From the NCBI GenBank assembly GCA_951406725.2, contig OX597833.1:17422001-17486000 (forward strand): 64,000 nt of DNA, written 5' to 3'. Origin of the DNA: Octopus vulgaris (Eukaryota). The first letter of the stretch is position 1. Every line of letters begins with the position of its first letter. Positions 931 through 62,131 of the stretch are shown in pieces. The notes below the pieces were generated by a model. The model saw only the letters and a program-made list of their open reading frames with translations, did no database searches and had not been told where the DNA came from. A program made the translations under genes and the position numbers.

Positions 931-1432
<502 letters not shown>

Positions 1433-1575
1433 TATATATATACAATCTTTGGTATACATATACAGCCTTTTGACAGCAAAAATTAAAATGGATTTTTTAT
1501 ACATCTCAGAACATTTCAAGTTCAAGGCGAGAATATGTTTTTACTGACCTGTCGGTATTAGCAGACACAACTCAA

Positions 1576-3961: not shown

Positions 3962-4580
3962 AGGCGGCGAGCTGGCAGAAAAGTTAGCACGCCGGGCGAA
4001 ATGCTTAGCGATATGTCGTCTGCCGTTACGTTCTGAGTTCAAATTCCGCCGAGGTCGACTTGCCTTTCATCCTTTCGTGTTCGATAAATTAACTACCAGT
4101 TACGCACTGGGGTTGATGTAATCGACTTAATCCGTTTGTCTGTCCTTGTTTGTCCTCTCTGTGTTTAGCCCCTTGTGGGTAGTAAAGAAATAGAAATAGG
4201 TATTTCGTCTGCCGCTACGTTCTGAGTTCAAATTCCGCCGAGGTCGAGTTTGCCTTTCATCCTTTCGGGGTCGATAAATTAAGTACTTGTTACTTACTGG
4301 GGTCGATATAAACGACTTAATCCCTTTATCTGCCCTTGTTTGTCCCCTCTATGTTTCGCCCCTTGTGAGCAATAAAGAAATAAGAAACGTTAGCATGCCG
4401 GGAAAAATGCTTAGCGGTATTTCGTTTGCCTTTATGTTCTTTGTTCAAATTCCGCCGAGGTCGACTTTGCTTTCATCCTTTCGGGGTCGATAAATAAAGT
4501 ACCAGTTGCGCACTGGGTCGATCTAATCGACTGGCCCCCTCCTCCAAAATTTCGGGCCTCGTGCTTTGAGTAGAAAAGAA
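3962..4580 (+). mobile_element. SINE group A multimer
   Basis: Head GGCGGCGAGCTGGCAGAA..GTTAGCACGCCGGGCGAAATGCTTAGCG followed by three core modules. Confidence 0.9.
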
Positions 4581-7583: not shown

Positions 7584-8052
7584 GGCGGCGAGCTGACAGA
7601 ATCGTTAGCACGCCGGGCGAAATGCTTAGCGGTATTTCGTCAGCCGTAACGTTCTGAGTTTAAATTCCGCCGAGGTCGACTTTGCCTTTCATCCTTTCGG
7701 GGGCGATAAATTAAGTACCAGTTACGCACTGGGGTCGCTGTTATCGACTTAACCCCTTTATCTGTCCTTGTTTGTCCTCTCTGTGTTTAGCCCCTTGTGG
7801 GTTGTAAAGAAATTGAAATAGGTATTTCGTCTGTTTTAAAATTGCACGCCGGGCGAAATGCTTAGCAGTATCTCGTCAACCGCTACGTTCTGAGTTCAAA
7901 TTCCGCCGAGGTCGACTTTGCCTTTCATCCTTTCGGGGTCGATTAAATAAGTACCAGTTACGCACTGGGGTCGATATAATCTACTTAAGCCCTTTGTCTG
8001 TCCTTGTTTGTCCCCTCTATGTTTAGTCCCTTGTGGGCAATAAAGAAATAAG
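7584..8052 (+). mobile_element. SINE group A dimer with ~18-bp TSD
   Basis: AGAACAAC(G/C)TCTCCTTCA on both sides. Confidence 0.88.
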
Positions 8053-13192: not shown

Positions 13193-13298
13193 TATATATG
13201 AAAAAACAAGTCAAAAATAGAAAATGCTAAGATAATTTTATAGTGAATCTTGACTTGTTTTTTCATATATATCAACTCGTGTGTTCCTTTCCACCCTT
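13193..13298 (+). mobile_element. Short foldback plus tail, same family as 29970-30140
   Basis: TATATGAAAAAACAAGTCAA / TTGACTTGTTTTTTCATATA. The first 45 bp match 29970. Confidence 0.7.
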
Positions 13299-16991: not shown

Positions 16992-17720
<729 letters not shown>

Positions 17721-19499: not shown

Positions 19500-19540
19500 T
19501 AAAAAAATGGAGTTAACGCAGGTGTAATCAAATATTTTTA

Positions 19541-19624
19541 CTTTCGACACATGTTTCGAAAGTTCCACTGATACTATTCAAAAGAATAAATGGTATAAAC
19601 AATGCAATCTTCTCCTCAGGAAAG
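19541..19624 (-). ncRNA. Hammerhead ribozyme in the 3' UTR/pLTR of the PLE fragment
   Basis: CTTTC-CTGAGGA-GAAG...CTTTC-GAAAC-ATGT-GTC-GAAAG. It has a 5-bp stem I, an intact core, a GUC site and palindromic ACATGT. A decayed relative lies at 27345-27425. Confidence 0.8.
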
Positions 19625-19825
19625 TGAAAAAAAACGAAACTCGTCAATAAGACATTTTAGCAAAAAATGATGGATTTGTATAGCGATAGACAGAACGCTA
19701 TTAATATTGTTTAAAAAAACGTTATATGATATAACGTCATAAGTAGTTAACAGAAACAGTAGGGATATTAATAGTGAATGTTAAATATAAAGGAAATTAA
19801 AGTTTAACTTATATATAATGATAGA

Positions 19826-20442
19826 GACTATTTATATGCACTAAATGTATGTTTTTACCAATGCTTACATCTGTATGCTCGCTCTATAACCGTGTTTACT
19901 AGCGTATTTTAGAAAAAATAATGAAAAATAGCTCAGAATTGCAGAGAAGACAGAATTTCTTGCCTTTGTCATATGGTATCGAAATTGAAAGAATCAACCA
20001 TTCTAAATGAAATTGTTCATTGTGGTCTTTTAAATCCCAAATCAGTTTGCTGAGACCGGTACTATTTCGTTTATTTCTATTCCTAAATGTTGAGTAATGG
20101 ATAGAAATTCTTTTAGATAACTCTAACGATGTGCTTCCAATGTAAAATCGTACTTTATTACGAGTACTGATTATACACTGGTATATAGAATTTTTAACCT
20201 TAGAGTTACTTGACATAAACTTAATTCTATTGTAATTGACTTCAGATACAATAACCTTGTTATTAATATTTCTAGAGGGTTGGATGGTAGTAGCTAAATT
20301 AATGTTAGTATTAGTAAATGTATTAATATTTAACAGTTTGTTATTATGAGAAGAGATAATTTGCAAGAGATATTTTGTGTTTGAAAAACCTATCCTAACC
20401 TTATGTGAATTGATTATAGAGTAATATCTAGAATTGTTTGGA
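19826..20442 (-). pseudogene. Penelope-like retroelement C-terminus: RT thumb end plus GIY-YIG endonuclease, 5'-truncated and frameshifted
   Basis: KVRIGFS..QIISSHNNKLL...SIYQC...FYIGST...KRISIHYSTF...NSTGLSKLIWDLK...W.IL...Y...CLLCNSE. The terminal LVNT...RCKH lies in a shifted frame. The N-terminal part of ORF 19899-20621 is (TCTA)n read-through. Confidence 0.88.
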
Positions 20443-26017: not shown

Positions 26018-26165
26018 TGTATGTATGTATGTATGTATGTATGTATGTATGTATGTATGTATGGTGAGTGGGCAGGAAAAAACAACAAAAACAAGGTAAA
26101 AAAAAGGGGGATGAGTTTCCACAAAGGTGTTATTCGTTTCATGCTTGAAAAGAAAAAGAAAGGGT

Positions 26166-26206
26166 CTTTGACGTTTCGGACATCAGAGTTCCTCATCAGA
26201 TGAAAA
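26166..26206 (-). ncRNA. Minimal hammerhead with canonical core
   Basis: CTGATGA-GGA-ACTCTGATG-TCC-GAAAC-GTC-AAAG. Stem I is imperfect. Confidence 0.65.
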
Positions 26207-28325: not shown

Positions 28326-30021
28326 TAAAATAAGAATTTTCAGGAGATAAATTGATGTCCTTTTGTCAAATTTGAGGAGAATATTAAGTGGAGGCAAGAC
28401 AATTAATAGTAGTGAGTTTTGTTTTGCTCATTTGGTTGCGGCCATGCTGGGGCTCTGCCTTCAAAAGTTTTGTTAAGCAAGTCAACCCCAGTACTTATTT
28501 TCCTTTTTAACTCACTTTTATCGAACCGCTATGTTACGGGAATGTAAACAAACCAACATCGGTTATCAAGTAGTAGAGGGAGGACAAACACACACACACG
28601 GATACGTATATACGGTGGTTGTCAACACAATTTCCGTTGGCCATATTCACTCACAAGTAATTAATCGGCCCAGGACTATTGTAGAAGACACTCGCCCAAG
28701 TAGGATTGAACCCGAAACAACGTGGGTGCAAAGCGAGCCTTTTTTGCCGAATCGCTAAGTTACACGAACGTAAACAAACCCACACCGGTTGTCAAGCAGT
28801 GGAGGGAAGACAAATACACGCATACACACACACGCCCACATACAAACATATATACAGCAGGCTTCCATAGAATTTCCGTTGATCATATTCACTCACAAGT
28901 AATCAATCGACCCACGATTATAGTAGAAGGCACTTGCCCAAGGAACCGCTCAGTGAGACTGAACCTGAAACAGCGTTATTTCCAGGCGAGCTTTTAACCA
29001 CACAATGAGTCCTGCGTCTATAAAACAGTTTCAATAATAGCGTAAAAGTACCTGAACGTCTTAGGCACGAAAATCGAATTAAAGAACAACACAAGTTCAC
29101 TCTGAAATGCATGTTTAAGATACGTAATGGAAGAAAAATGTGGAATACAAAGAATGCGCTGGAAATCATATGTCTTTGATAACTCAGCACATGTCTCTGA
29201 CGTCTAAAATATGGCTCTAGGGTAAATAAAATATACCCTTACCGCCTCCAGCGCAGGCGATTGGAGAATTTTGAGAGCGAACCATTCGAAATAATATGAA
29301 ACAGATTTTCTTCTCTTGTGGTGGCTGTGAGGTCCCAGACGTTCGCTTTGCAACAACATGGTTTCGGGTTCAGTCCCACGGTGTGCCACATGGAACAATC
29401 GTATTACTGACTACTGTAGACTGTGGTGCCTTTTACGAGGAGGATCTTTATCGGTTTACCCATTCACCGATGAGAAATTTCCATCTTAATTTCTTCCAAA
29501 TTGCTGACTTAAAATGATGGTCTAATTTCCAATTGTCGTAATGAAATTTATCCTAAGTAATTTTTTTCCTGTCCCTCCTTCCTTCTCTCCTTCTATCTCT
29601 CTCTTTCTCTTTCTCTCTCTCTCTCTGTTTTCTCTCAGTTTCTCTGTGCTTTTTGGCAAACCGACTTGGATTATATATATATATATAAAATAATTTCATT
29701 GGAGTATGTAACCCTAGTATTTATCGTAGTATTAAATTCATTCAATGATATTGGCTATCGGACAGATCGTTTGCTCTGCCAAAGAATTGCCTGGAAACCC
29801 AGATATCCATAGAGTTGTTATAATGACAAATGAAAAGAATATATAATTACTTGCTCTTCCCCCACCTTTTTTATTCGGTATTAGATAGATAGATACATAC
29901 ATATATACATACATACATAAACATATACATATGTATATAATACATATGCATATGTGTATATATATATATGAAAAAACAAGTCAAAATAGAAAATGCTAAA
30001 ATAATTTTATAAAGAACATTT

Positions 30022-30059
30022 CAGTACCGGTTTCGGTCATTTTGAGACCTTTTCAACTG
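30022..30059 (-). ncRNA. Minimal hammerhead, U3-A8 core variant, in a TA-abutting element (29970-30140)
   Basis: CAG-TTGAAAA-GGTC-TCAAAAT-GACC-GAAAC-CG-GTA-CTG. Confidence 0.72.
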
Positions 30060-30196
30060 TAACGATTAATTAATTAAATTTAGAAAAATTAAAAGAAAAG
30101 TTTTTTTAAAGGAATATTTGTATAGTGTTCAAATATAAGTGACATTTTCCTTGTTTCTGCCTTCCTCTGTCTCTCTCGTTTGCACTTGTGTGTTCG

Positions 30197-30258
<62 letters not shown>

Positions 30259-32479: not shown

Positions 32480-33760
32480 TTTCTTCTCTAGGCACAAGGC
32501 CCGACATTTTTGGAGAGGGGGCCAGTCGATTAGATCGGCTCCAATACGCAACTGGTACTGAATTAATAAACCCCGAAAGGATGAAAGTCAAAGTCAACCT
32601 CGGCGGGATTTGAACTCAGAACGTAAAGACAAACGAAATACCACGAAGCATTTCGTCCGGGGTGCTAACATTTCTGCCAGCTCGTCGCCTTTAGCAGCAG
32701 ACAAAATACCTTTTTCTTTACTGCCCACAAGGGGCTACACACACAGAGGACAAACAAGGACAGACACACAGATTAAGTCGATTATATCGACCCCAGTGCG
32801 TAACTGGTACTTAATTTATCAACCCCGAAAGGATGAAAGGCAAAGTCAACCTCGGCGGAATTTGAACTCACAACGTAACGACAGACGAAATACCTATTTC
32901 TTTATTACCCACAAGGGACTAAACACAGAGGGGACAAACAAGGACAGACATAAGTATTAAGTCGATTATATCGTCCTCAGTGCGTAACTGGTACTTAATT
33001 TATCGACCCCGAAAGGATGAAAGGCAAAGGCGACCTCGGCGGAATTTGGACTCAGAACGTAGCGGCAGACGAAATACTGCTGTGCATTTCGCCAGGCGTG
33101 CTAACGTTTCTGCCAGCTCGCCACCTTAAGTATATCCAAAATTAGAAAACACATTACTGATACGAAACTCCATATGAAGTAATGCTTCGTCAGCACTTCA
33201 CAATTAATTATTTTATTTACCCCCGAAAGGATTAAAGGCAAAGTTGACCGCGGCCTTATTTGAAGAAATGTCACAAAGCATTTTGTCCGGCGATCTACCG
33301 AGTCTACCAGCTCACCGCTTTCTTCAGAAAAAATATATTAGTTTCAAATTTTGACACAAAGCCAGTAATTTCGAGGATGGAGATAAGTCGACTGCATTGA
33401 CCCTAGTACTCAACTGGTACTTATTTTATCAATTACCGACTAGAGAAAAGGTAAAGTCGACTTCGACTTTATTTGAACTCAGAACGTAAATTAAAAAAAT
33501 AAAACAAGGAAATGCCGCTAAGAATTTTGTCCAGAGAGTTACCGAGTCTACTAGTAATTTGGGGGATGGATGTAGGGCGATTACATCGACCCCAGTGATC
33601 AACTGGCACTTATTTTATCGACCCAGAAAAGATGAAAGGCAATGTAGACCTCGGCGGGATTTGAACTCAGAATGTAAAAAGTCGGGAGAAATTCCACTAA
33701 GCATATTAACTGGCTTGCTAACGATTCTTACCAGCTCATCGCCTTCTTTACAAAAAAATT
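32480..33760 (-). mobile_element. Cluster of SINE group A copies: a young trimer at 32480-33130 plus older monomers
   Basis: Family homology. Confidence 0.88.
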
Positions 33761-45478: not shown

Positions 45479-45861
45479 AATTAGAAAAAACCCACCTTTT
45501 ATCAATTCAAAATGAACAATTAAATTACACCATCTAGAAAATTACATATAATAGAAATATTAAAATTAAAATAACAATAAAATGTCAATGATTAAGTAAA
45601 TTACGAAAAAATAATAAAAACGTATATTATTATTATTTTTTTTGTAATTTACTTAATCATTGATATTTTATTGTTATTTTAATTTTAATATTTCTATTAT
45701 ATGTAATTTTCTAGATGGTATAATTTAATTGTTCGTTTTGAATTGATAAAAGGTGGGTTTTTTCTAATTTCTTATATATATATTGTATTGTGTGAAATTT
45801 GATTTAGTATTTCTTAATTGAATTTTTTCCTTGTAAGTTTGGATTTTATTCCCTCAAATAA

Positions 45862-46387: not shown

Positions 46388-46430
<43 letters not shown>

Positions 46431-46435
<5 letters not shown>

Positions 46436-46690
46436 TTAGAGATAAAACCACTATTAGGCAAATCAAACAGTGAAAAACAGAAATAAAATTAATTAATATA
46501 ATATACAAAATTTATAAAATTCAAAATTTAAATTATTTAAATTTAAAGTTAAAATTTTTTCACTGTTTGATTTGCCTAATAGTGGTTTTATCTCTAATTT
46601 AATATATAAATATATATATGTATATTGTAAAATTAGATTTAATCCTAAATCTAATTTTTCCCTGTAAGTTTGGATTTACTCCCTATTATT
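46431..46690 (+). mobile_element. Foldback with ~48-bp arms plus tail in (TA)n
   Basis: TTAAATTAGAGATAAAACCACTATTAGGCAAATCAAACAGTGAAAAA is inverted at 46556-46602. The tail is TTTTCCCTGTAAGTTTGGATTTACTCCC. Confidence 0.82.
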
Positions 46691-46692
46691 AT

Positions 46693-46748
<56 letters not shown>

Positions 46749-46752
<4 letters not shown>

Positions 46753-47576
46753 GAAATATTAAAATAACTAAGTCTCTCTAAAAGAGAACAGCGGCAGCGT
46801 TCCCGGAAAATAATAGTTATCGCCATACTAATATGGCATTCTTATAAAAATAAGAAAAAGCTGTCCGCTTATTAGCTCCATGAGGCCATCGCCTTAAGTT
46901 AGCTATTTGATACACAAACTGTATCCATATAACCTTCGAACAAGGGAGGTCAGTCGCTCCACACTACTTGACCGGCAGCTACAGACGCGTTTCGGGGTAT
47001 TGCCCCTTTTCAATGCAGCGTAGCCAGCCAGTAGGTTTCGCTTCCGACAATCTCTGTTCGATGGTTTTATTTACCTAGTTTCGGTGGAATACATCCACTT
47101 GTTTTCAATAATAGAAATATTAAAATAACTAAGTCTCTCTAAAAGAGAACAGCGGCAGCGTTCCCGGAAAATAATAGTTATCGCCATACTAATATGGCAT
47201 TCTTATAAAAATAAGAAAAAAGCTGTCCGCTTATTAGCTCCATGAGGCCATCGCCTTAAGTTAGCTATTTGATACACAAACTGTATCCATATAACCTTCC
47301 ACCGAAACTAGGTAAATAAAACCATCGAACAGAGATTGTCGGAAGCGACACCTACTGGCTGGCTACGCTGCATTGAAAAGGGGCAATACCCCGAAACGCG
47401 TCTGTAGCTGCCGGTCAAGTAGTGTGGAGCGACTGACCTCCCTTGTTCGAAGGTTATATGGATACAGTTTGTGTATCAAATAGCTAACTTAAGGCGATGG
47501 CCTCATGGAGCTAATAAGCGGACAGCTTTTTTATTATTTTTATAAGAATGCCATATTAGTATGGCGATAACTATTA
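46749..47576 (-). mobile_element. HHR element: 1.5 head-to-tail copies of a 361-bp unit plus an inverted 280-bp copy, in (TA)n
   Basis: Unit repeats at 46751 and 47112. 47297-47576 is the reverse complement of 46811-47089. HHRs lie at 46978-47019 (-) and 47367-47408 (+). Confidence 0.9.
47367..47408 (+). ncRNA. Minimal hammerhead, U3-A8 core variant (mirror copy at 46978-47019)
   Basis: GCTGCA-TTGAAAA-GGGG-CAATA-CCCC-GAAAC-GC-GTC-TGTAGC: 6-bp stem I, 4-bp stem II, palindromic ACGCGT and a GUC site. Confidence 0.8.
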
Positions 47577-48987
47577 TATATATATATATATATGTGCACA
47601 CACACATGCATACATACATATATATATATATATATACATACATGCATACATACATACAAACACATACACGCACACACGCACGCACACATACACACGCACA
47701 CACACATATACATAGGTGTGTACTTGAAAAATGTTGCAGAATAACAATCCGGTTATTGATATTGGTTCATGTATGTTGATGTATACACCAGCGATCCAAG
47801 TACGCTATGTTATGGATAGAAGTAACAGTTTGTTAAGATGTTGGCTTGTTTGAATACGTTTGGGGTTTGTTTGTGGCTGAAAAAGTTTTCGTTTCTGTAA
47901 TTATGTTTTTGTTACGAGTGAAAGACGTCAAAAGGACATTTATTCAAAGAGCAGACGTTTCGAAATCGCCCTACCTCGAAGAGAGGGTGAAACAATTTGT
48001 AAACTGAAAAGAAACACACCACACTGGCTAAAACTAAAGGCTTTCCCCGAAGGAAATTTGGTAGTCATTTGGTTATTTGATATCGTTGTCTTAAAATAGA
48101 GATTTCTGGAAGAGATTTATCGGATGACATTCCTTAAATTAGTTCAACGATTATAAAAACATGCACATATACATGCATTATACACATACACATACAGACA
48201 CACAAATACATATACACACGGCTCGTATATAACATTTAGAGTTGCAGGGTAGTCAAAATCATCACGTGTGTTCCAAATCTAACAATTTATATGAAATACA
48301 TAACTATATTTTCGAAAAACACATTTTTTTTCTTTTGCTTCGTAGACAAATTAATAATGGTTTTCTTTGAAGACTAATAGATTCATAATTTCCACTACTT
48401 CATAATAAATACATATTAAAACGCCTCATTCATAAACTAATGTGTCAGAATGATAAACATTTACACCTGTTACCGACAGCCTATGATTCCGTAATTACAT
48501 TTTGATTTGCCACCTATTTCTCATTTGTCAATGCCAAACTCACCTGAGCATCATTTCACAATGCTTTTGGTCCCTGTCAAATTATACTAAGTTATAAAAA
48601 TATAGAAAACTAGCTTTTCAGAGAACACTTTATTATATCAGGTTACAGATAGCTTTTCTATGTCTTAGAGAAAATGTAGAAGTTATCTGTGTGAGTATGT
48701 TTAATAAAAAAAAAACTAAATCTGTTCCATATTGTAATTACTCTGTCTTCGAAGGGAACATGAAAACGATGCCTGACTAGAACAGAGGCAAATAACAACA
48801 GCAACAACAACAACAACAACAAAAATAATGGTTTCTAATTTGGGCACAGCTCAATCCAGAGAACTACGTTAAGGGTACACGTGTCTATGGAGTGCTCAGC
48901 CACTTGTACGTTAATTTCACGAGCAGGCTGTACCGTTGATCGGATCAACAGGAATCCTCGTCGTCGTAACCGACGTAGTGCCCACGA

Positions 48988-62085: not shown

Positions 62086-62131
62086 AACACAACGTTTCGG
62101 CTGATATACCTTCCAGCCTTCATCAGGTGTC
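62086..62131 (-). ncRNA. Canonical minimal type-I hammerhead ribozyme
   Basis: GACAC-CTGATGA-A-GGCTG-GAAGGTATAT-CAGCC-GAAAC-GTT-GTGTT. Confidence 0.82.

Follow-up and report, generated by a model that had tools for sequence, protein, structure and literature searches.

Natural covariation of hammerhead core positions 3 and 8 to U3-A8 was reported by Perreault et al. 2011 (PMC3088659), along with a U10.1.U11.1 mismatch, and that paper cites earlier in vitro activity of the C3-G8/U3-A8 swap. The U3-A8 pair also occurs in minimal hammerheads of Penelope-like elements, for which about 1,300 matches have been described (Cervera and De la Pena 2014, PMC4209133); there, the Cercyon pseudo-LTRs of Schistosoma mansoni carry type I hammerheads with this pair in a Penelope-like context, mostly as solo or opposite-strand copies. 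According to the same paper, minimal Penelope-like hammerheads are dimer-dependent and show low activity in vitro, and the dimer model is restated in a review (PMC6765202). The Neptune and Nematis clades of Penelope-like elements are those in which reverse transcriptase (RT) is followed by a CX2-5CxxC linker and then by a C-terminal GIY-YIG domain (Craig et al. 2021, PMC8557442); their copies form inverted, 5′-truncated arms, target microsatellites, and bear a hammerhead within the terminal repeat; Naiad elements, as described in that source, spread without canonical hammerheads. Metazoan non-LTR retrozymes (Cervera and De la Pena 2020, PMC7229834; Li et al. bioRxiv 10.64898/2026.07.22.740005) are short tandem non-coding units with a type I hammerhead made of a 6-bp helix I, a 4-bp helix II, and a palindromic helix III, and are described as likely derived from or mobilised by Penelope-like elements.

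We analysed a 64,000-nt stretch of Octopus vulgaris contig OX597833.1 (positions 17,422,001 to 17,486,000; hereafter the window), drawn from a microsatellite-rich 2.8-Gb genome. Five motifs in it are, in our judgment, probably type I U3-A8 hammerheads. Three of them lie at the 3′ ends of Penelope-like elements (families B and C), the other two in a tandem repeat with a non-coding 362-nt unit (family A). In their source elements the motifs are predicted to cut when dimeric, and they likely inherited U-A from one ancestor. The U3-A8 core and, in family C, the U10.1.U11.1 mismatch match the variants of PMC3088659, although the relevant section of that paper presents U3-A8 as rare examples, without the Penelope-like context or intermediate states found here. 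Cercyon, as described in PMC4209133, shares the core, the type I form, the Penelope-like context, and the mostly solo or opposite-strand copies, whereas here there are about 10 times more copies, U3-A8 is the majority state of a whole class, the hosts are Neptune/Nematis-type, and helix III has a 4-nt palindromic insert in place of the bare minimal form. Likewise, the elements described here agree with the published account of Neptune and Nematis (PMC8557442) in domain order, arms, targets, and hammerhead position, and differ in the core variant. Family A resembles the metazoan non-LTR retrozymes, as described in the two sources above, in unit type, hammerhead architecture, and likely Penelope-like origin or mobilisation, but has a U3-A8 core, frequent inverted arms, and (TA)n targets, and is known here from DNA alone. 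The swap itself is already published, a known variant in a known context, and so has little import alone. What is likely new is a stepwise path through a multiplied mismatch state in a relative of family A (lineage E), and possibly a trace of cleavage in family A truncations; in the literature covered we found no prior report of a stepwise U-A/C.A/C-G path, or of U3-A8 in this taxon.

The features of the window are as follows, the hammerheads being descriptor matches.

46747 to 47577: family A retrozyme insertion, in which a 362-nt non-coding unit forms two inverted arms that both end in (TA)n
47367 to 47408, plus strand: family A hammerhead, U3-A8, heptamer 47373-47379, predicted cut after 47402
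46978 to 47019, minus strand: family A hammerhead, inverted copy, U3-A8, heptamer 47013-47007, predicted cut after 46984
29970 to 30201, minus strand: family B, 5′-truncated 3′ end of a Neptune/Nematis-type Penelope-like element, 87% identical to the 3′ region of genomic relative L070
30022 to 30059, minus strand: family B hammerhead, U3-A8, heptamer 30056-30050, stem I of 3 bp
1093 to 1565, minus strand: family C, truncated 3′ end of a Neptune/Nematis-type Penelope-like element, 80% identical over 542 columns to the 3′ region of genomic relative L071
1134 to 1174, minus strand: family C hammerhead, U3-A8, heptamer 1170-1164, U10.1.U11.1 mismatch
17309 to 17625, minus strand: family C, second truncated 3′ end, 98% identical over 324 nt to L071
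17347 to 17391, minus strand: family C hammerhead, U3-A8, heptamer 17385-17379
62086 to 62131, minus strand: family D minimal hammerhead, canonical C3-G8, used as internal comparison

All five motifs reported in an earlier note were recovered at its sites by a descriptor with positions 3 and 8 left free, the coordinates given there for the heptamers being in fact the outer ends of stem I. Stem I has 6 bp in family A, only 3 bp in family B, and 4-6 bp in family C; stem II has 4 bp in A and B and 5 bp in C, where it is closed by the U10.1.U11.1 mismatch. The helix III palindromes measure 6-8 nt (6 nt in A), and the 41-nt motif is identical in the two family C copies. Every copy (5/5) retains U4, G5, A6, A9, G12, A13, A14, and the A15.1-U16.1 pair, every copy has U-A as its 3-8 pair, and position 17 is C, A, or U. 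The two family A motifs belong to a single repeat unit present twice in opposite orientation, with arms of 244 nt that are 98% complementary, and therefore represent one insertion, not two events. A looser first descriptor gave 10 matches in the window, 4 of them without family support. The strict form left positions 3 and 8 free, required a palindromic loop and minimum lengths of 3 bp for stem I and 4 bp for stem II, and had its thresholds chosen post hoc; it gave 6 matches, namely the five U3-A8 motifs and one with C3-G8 (at 62126), and none in 200 shuffled versions of the window (dinucleotide shuffling by blocks). Among the 150 matches listed in an Rfam scan of the window there was no hammerhead, all being microsatellite matches to miRNA models. 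Elsewhere in the window, a degenerate C3-G8 minimal hammerhead core with a weak stem I was seen at 26165-26199 (minus strand).

The same motifs recur throughout the genome. The family A core with stem II and palindrome, positions 3 and 8 free, has 786 exact matches and a control count of 0, and U3-A8 is present in 100/100 of the matches listed; in family B, 9/9 loci are U-A, and in family C, 26 of 30, the rest being 2 C.A (two arms of one insertion) and 2 unparsed. U3-A8 is thus the consensus of each family, as the earlier note had supposed, rather than a private mutation of CTGANGA. Across the palindromic class as a whole, counted as exact matches ending GAAAC-SS-GTH, U3-A8 was found 12,946 times (control 172). 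The view that the motifs are chance matches or private decay of canonical copies was accordingly rejected and retains a practically negligible probability: it can appeal to the AT-rich heptamer and to the short stem I of family B, but faces the empty shuffles, the 786 family A copies, and the 12,946 genomic matches against their controls.

In the same class, C3-G8 numbers 256 against a control of 269 and hence shows no excess; about half of the C3-G8 matches listed are a real family, and the control was probably raised by an unrelated repeat. C3.A8 occurs 342 times (control 117) and U3.G8 441 times (control 188). Roughly one fifth of the C3.A8 rows among the matches listed (L136, L140, L143, and others) carry a repeated core-like string without clear stems, which is probably not a hammerhead. 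A second class, with a bare palindrome, has 9,651 genome matches (control 944), in which C3-G8 was found in 28 of the first 30 by script and in 89 of 100 among the matches listed, by eye. Family D, very abundant and represented in the window by the minus-strand motif at 62086-62131, accounts for most of these 9,651. Among 100 consecutive U3-A8 sites on contig 1, 41 belong to the B lineage, 23 to C, 17 to F, 9 to A, 4 to G, and 2 to M, while 4 are single, one of which is likely a chance match.

The suggestion that literal CUGANGA searches overlook these motifs holds, since such a search would miss the U3-A8 share of about 60% of the motifs counted here, a rough figure because the palindromic and bare-palindrome patterns differ in strictness. 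Ribozyme and retrozyme censuses of such genomes based on CUGANGA string descriptors would consequently be too low. A covariance model can detect a U-A copy, so the blindness is limited to literal string searches: with Rfam, a U-A copy of lineage E matched HH9 at E 6e-6 (29 bits, under the cut-off of 52), a C-G copy of the same lineage matched Hammerhead_1 at E 2.9 only, and family A gave no hammerhead match at E up to 10.

The carriers of families B and C can be identified from their genomic relatives, the window copies being ORF-less 3′ stubs. A single ORF with RT and C-terminal GIY-YIG was seen in L070, L071, L232, and L233. The ORFs adjoining the hammerheads of B, C, and a further family, F, share the layout of RT, CxxC linker, and C-terminal GIY-YIG, with the linker C-x4-C-x2-C found in all three; the family B relative L070 has all three parts, and the family C ORF matches Pfam RVT_1 and GIY-YIG over cut-off. 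These ORFs are 56-58% identical to each other (B and C proteins 56%), which makes B and C relatives. Copies of B, C, and F run 45-85 nt beyond the predicted cut and end in TA repeats, (TA)n closing the family B window copy about 55 nt beyond it, and B/C elements form inverted, 5′-truncated arms in microsatellite targets. By these sequence features, B and C are the 3′ ends of Penelope-like elements of either the Neptune or the Nematis type. The window also holds, at 13200-13265, a tiny family B end in which the hammerhead is absent: between TA tracts, the post-hammerhead tail abuts an inverted copy of itself.

Family A is a 362-nt unit with 41% G+C (under the 45% criterion) and a longest stop-free stretch of 55 codons, occurring as tandem arrays and inverted pairs, with hammerheads spaced 360-363 nt apart in arrays of 2-4. 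That the family is young follows from the 40 copies scored, which showed 100% identity over 121 nt. In the window insertion, the minus arm (47299-46747) spans 1.5 units and the plus arm covers 47297-47577; the arms end at +238 and +175 past the predicted cut, the two places at which 3′ ends of this family preferentially fall. Among 35 such ends, 33 lie at or near +172 to +180 or +237 to +239, with TA repeats after nearly all, and the 34 5′ ends are scattered. The family A loci gave no RT match, and no autonomous partner was found among the fetched loci. These properties fit a non-LTR retrozyme that a Penelope-like protein may copy. Two other short inverted-repeat elements stand beside TA tracts at 45500-45748 and 46408-46625 of the window, and tandem 184-236-nt units of one abundant SINE-like repeat at 2232-2713, 4012-4387, 7608-8049, and 32698-33077.

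Positions 3 and 8 covary, in agreement with the expectation of the earlier note: over 17 related lineage rows (a hand-picked set in which each lineage has one row or a few), positions 3 and 8 are U-A in 11, C-G in 3, U-G in 1, and unpaired in 2 (15/17 pair), and covariation is also seen within lineage E. In the same 17 rows, U4, G5, A6, A9, G12-A15, and U16.1 (with the A15.1-U16.1 pair) are invariant, and 6/6 stem I pairs have changed on both sides, 95% of cells being paired against 26-48% in slid controls. Given the relatedness and the selection of these rows, shuffle figures for them do not amount to probabilities.

Lineages E, H, and I are distantly homologous to family A, and E contains several states of the 3-8 pair. 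Lineage E has 390 copies, and the first 100 listed comprised, by eye, 53 U-A, 41 C-G, 6 C.A, and 0 U.G. A first tree with untrimmed flanks required 10 changes, since truncated copies bore unrelated flank, and it is superseded by a trimmed tree, with positions 3 and 8 masked, that kept from 152 cores the 36 unique rows having 300 or more aligned nt and took in 3 further rows (L196 and L304 being the same site). The trimmed tree needs two changes, the minimum possible, and its U-A rows are basal under a root, placed on a long branch, with family A and the E copy of greatest divergence as outgroup. All C3 rows lie in one clade (100/98), inside which 15 of the 16 C-G rows form a clade (96/94), all 16 together reaching only 76/70. 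C3.A8 is represented by 10 tree rows at 7 loci, in tandem at one. A short C.A copy, L205, which grouped with a U-A copy in the untrimmed tree and was excluded from the trimmed one by the length filter, is probably a separate single mutant. The likely order is therefore U-A to C.A to C-G, by which the canonical pair would have been regained in steps; for ordinary RNA stems, a route through A.C intermediates has been described (PMC6961544). The natural U-A, C.A, C-G, and U.G series in near-identical backbones offers a ready test of whether a catalytic pair can undergo compensatory change via a working mismatch.

Mismatched pairs also occur in other multiplied groups. All fetched copies of lineage H (7 loci, including L135, L142, L146, L206, L208, and L209) have C3.A8, a tally that cannot stand for a lineage consensus, as the loci were fetched by that pattern; clustering of fetched loci counts overlapping loci repeatedly, so row numbers are not copy numbers. 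Lineage H is older and retrozyme-like, with its own compensated stem I. Among the U3.G8 matches listed, about 55 of 100 (by eye) belong to a subfamily of family F; in most of its fetched copies a single base is missing directly behind position 17, and one copy keeps a 532-codon stop-free ORF. In the family F loci L267, L268, and L269, U3.G8 is accompanied by a 2-bp stem II and the absence of one base right after position 17. A recurring ligation scar was considered for this one-base loss and rejected, the loss being confined to family F subfamilies at 100 unbiased sites and rare in family A. Because C.A and U.G subfamilies multiplied, selection on the 3-8 pair is not strict. The claim that the pair reflects selection rather than decay thus stands insofar as U3-A8 is the family norm (about 12,900 against 172), and needs to be loosened insofar as mismatch subfamilies have multiplied.

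The earlier note had also described three unrelated families with independent double changes, each fixed by selection for cleavage, an account that we regard as very unlikely. Blastn gave no significant match among the A, B, and C motif flanks, so the description holds for the DNA of the flanks; the 3-8 pair does switch state within this genome, the origin of family A is not tied to B/C, and U3-A8 is known in a flatworm Penelope-like family, so that it has more than one origin across animals. Against independent changes here, the B, C, and F proteins share 56-58% identity and one linker, and their elements have U3-A8 throughout and the same palindrome, which contradicts the absence of relationship between B and C and makes inheritance more parsimonious; moreover, U-A is basal in the retrozyme group, and the one traced switch is stepwise and likely towards C-G. 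We infer that a single origin of U-A is likely, one common to A and to B/C/F together being tentative.

Several observations suggest that the motifs are probably functional, that is, self-cutting, in their source elements. An unconstrained fold of a natural family A tandem dimer is predicted to be a double hammerhead, as are cofolded A and B motifs. Family C speaks against function, a misfold or competing fold being predicted for its monomer and its dimer alike. Subfamilies differ in position 17, which can be A, C, or U, and G17 was found genome-wide only 200 times (control 42, against 12,946 for U3-A8), as scattered single copies with no multiplied hammerhead-like subfamily among the 100 matches listed. 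The truncation data comprise 80 of 123 family A sites without G12 upstream, 67 of them breaks; 29/67 fall at +1 to +3 of the predicted cut, against about 14 expected under the strictest null, and 13/67 at +4 to +7, the base of stem I. With nulls that allow for microhomology, p = 3e-5, or 5e-4 after correction for 14 windows, the +1 to +3 window having been chosen post hoc and the peak being highest at +3, not +1. Inversion junctions alone give 14/37 at +1 to +3 (p about 0.01). This pile-up is possibly a trace of cleavage in the cell, and polymerase stalling could also shape the breakpoints; if the trace holds, it bears on whether Penelope-element hammerheads cut in the cell.

The motifs might instead be structural relics or serve another role, such as a protein-binding or dimerisation fold for copying, with cleavage weak or dispensable and U3-A8 drifting in an AT-rich genome, which we consider unlikely. 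This explanation would accommodate the multiplied C.A and U.G subfamilies, the subfamily without the base after position 17, the low in vitro activity described in PMC4209133, and the suggestion in PMC8557442 that hammerheads may simply parasitise these elements; in addition, all copies extend past the predicted cut, by 45-85 nt in B, C, and F and by 175-238 nt in A, so the template was either uncut or re-joined. It accords poorly with the avoidance of G17 and the retention of all catalytic core letters across diverged lineages, with the restored Watson-Crick pair in lineage E, and with a clustering of truncations that favours the scissile bond over the base of stem I. On functional hammerheads, a more ambitious reading can be offered only tentatively, as we give it rather less than an even chance: the genome would be a fossil record of a catalytic pair swap (U3-A8 to mobile C3.A8 to C3-G8, with U3.G8 spreading elsewhere), and family A 5′ truncations would mark the scissile bond, so that in vivo U3-A8 cleavage could be read from DNA alone. 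If true, most hammerheads of this genome would carry U3-A8, and those with a mismatched core would be ribozymes that work in nature.

A mechanism can be proposed from PMC4209133 and PMC7229834, as far as these sources describe it, and from the anatomy of the elements. A tandem source copy would be transcribed, two hammerheads would pair via their palindromes to form helix III, the RNA would presumably be cut after position 17, and the cut unit may be circularised. The RT/GIY-YIG protein of a Neptune/Nematis-type element, a putative mobilising partner in the case of family A, would then copy the unit into (TA)n tracts; copying would begin at preferred internal positions and often finish with an arm that is inverted and 5′-truncated. 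The window's own copies are probably inert, dead stubs, since in a transcript running through the A insertion the hammerhead would be hidden within a long hairpin, and the B and C copies are solo. On the minus strand of the window, a GIY-YIG endonuclease remnant (19899-20420; Pfam E 9e-4, under cut-off) was also seen, with a C3-G8 hammerhead-like motif about 280 nt downstream (19540-19625, by eye) that has a very long stem II and is followed by TA repeats; together they likely represent another Penelope-like clade.
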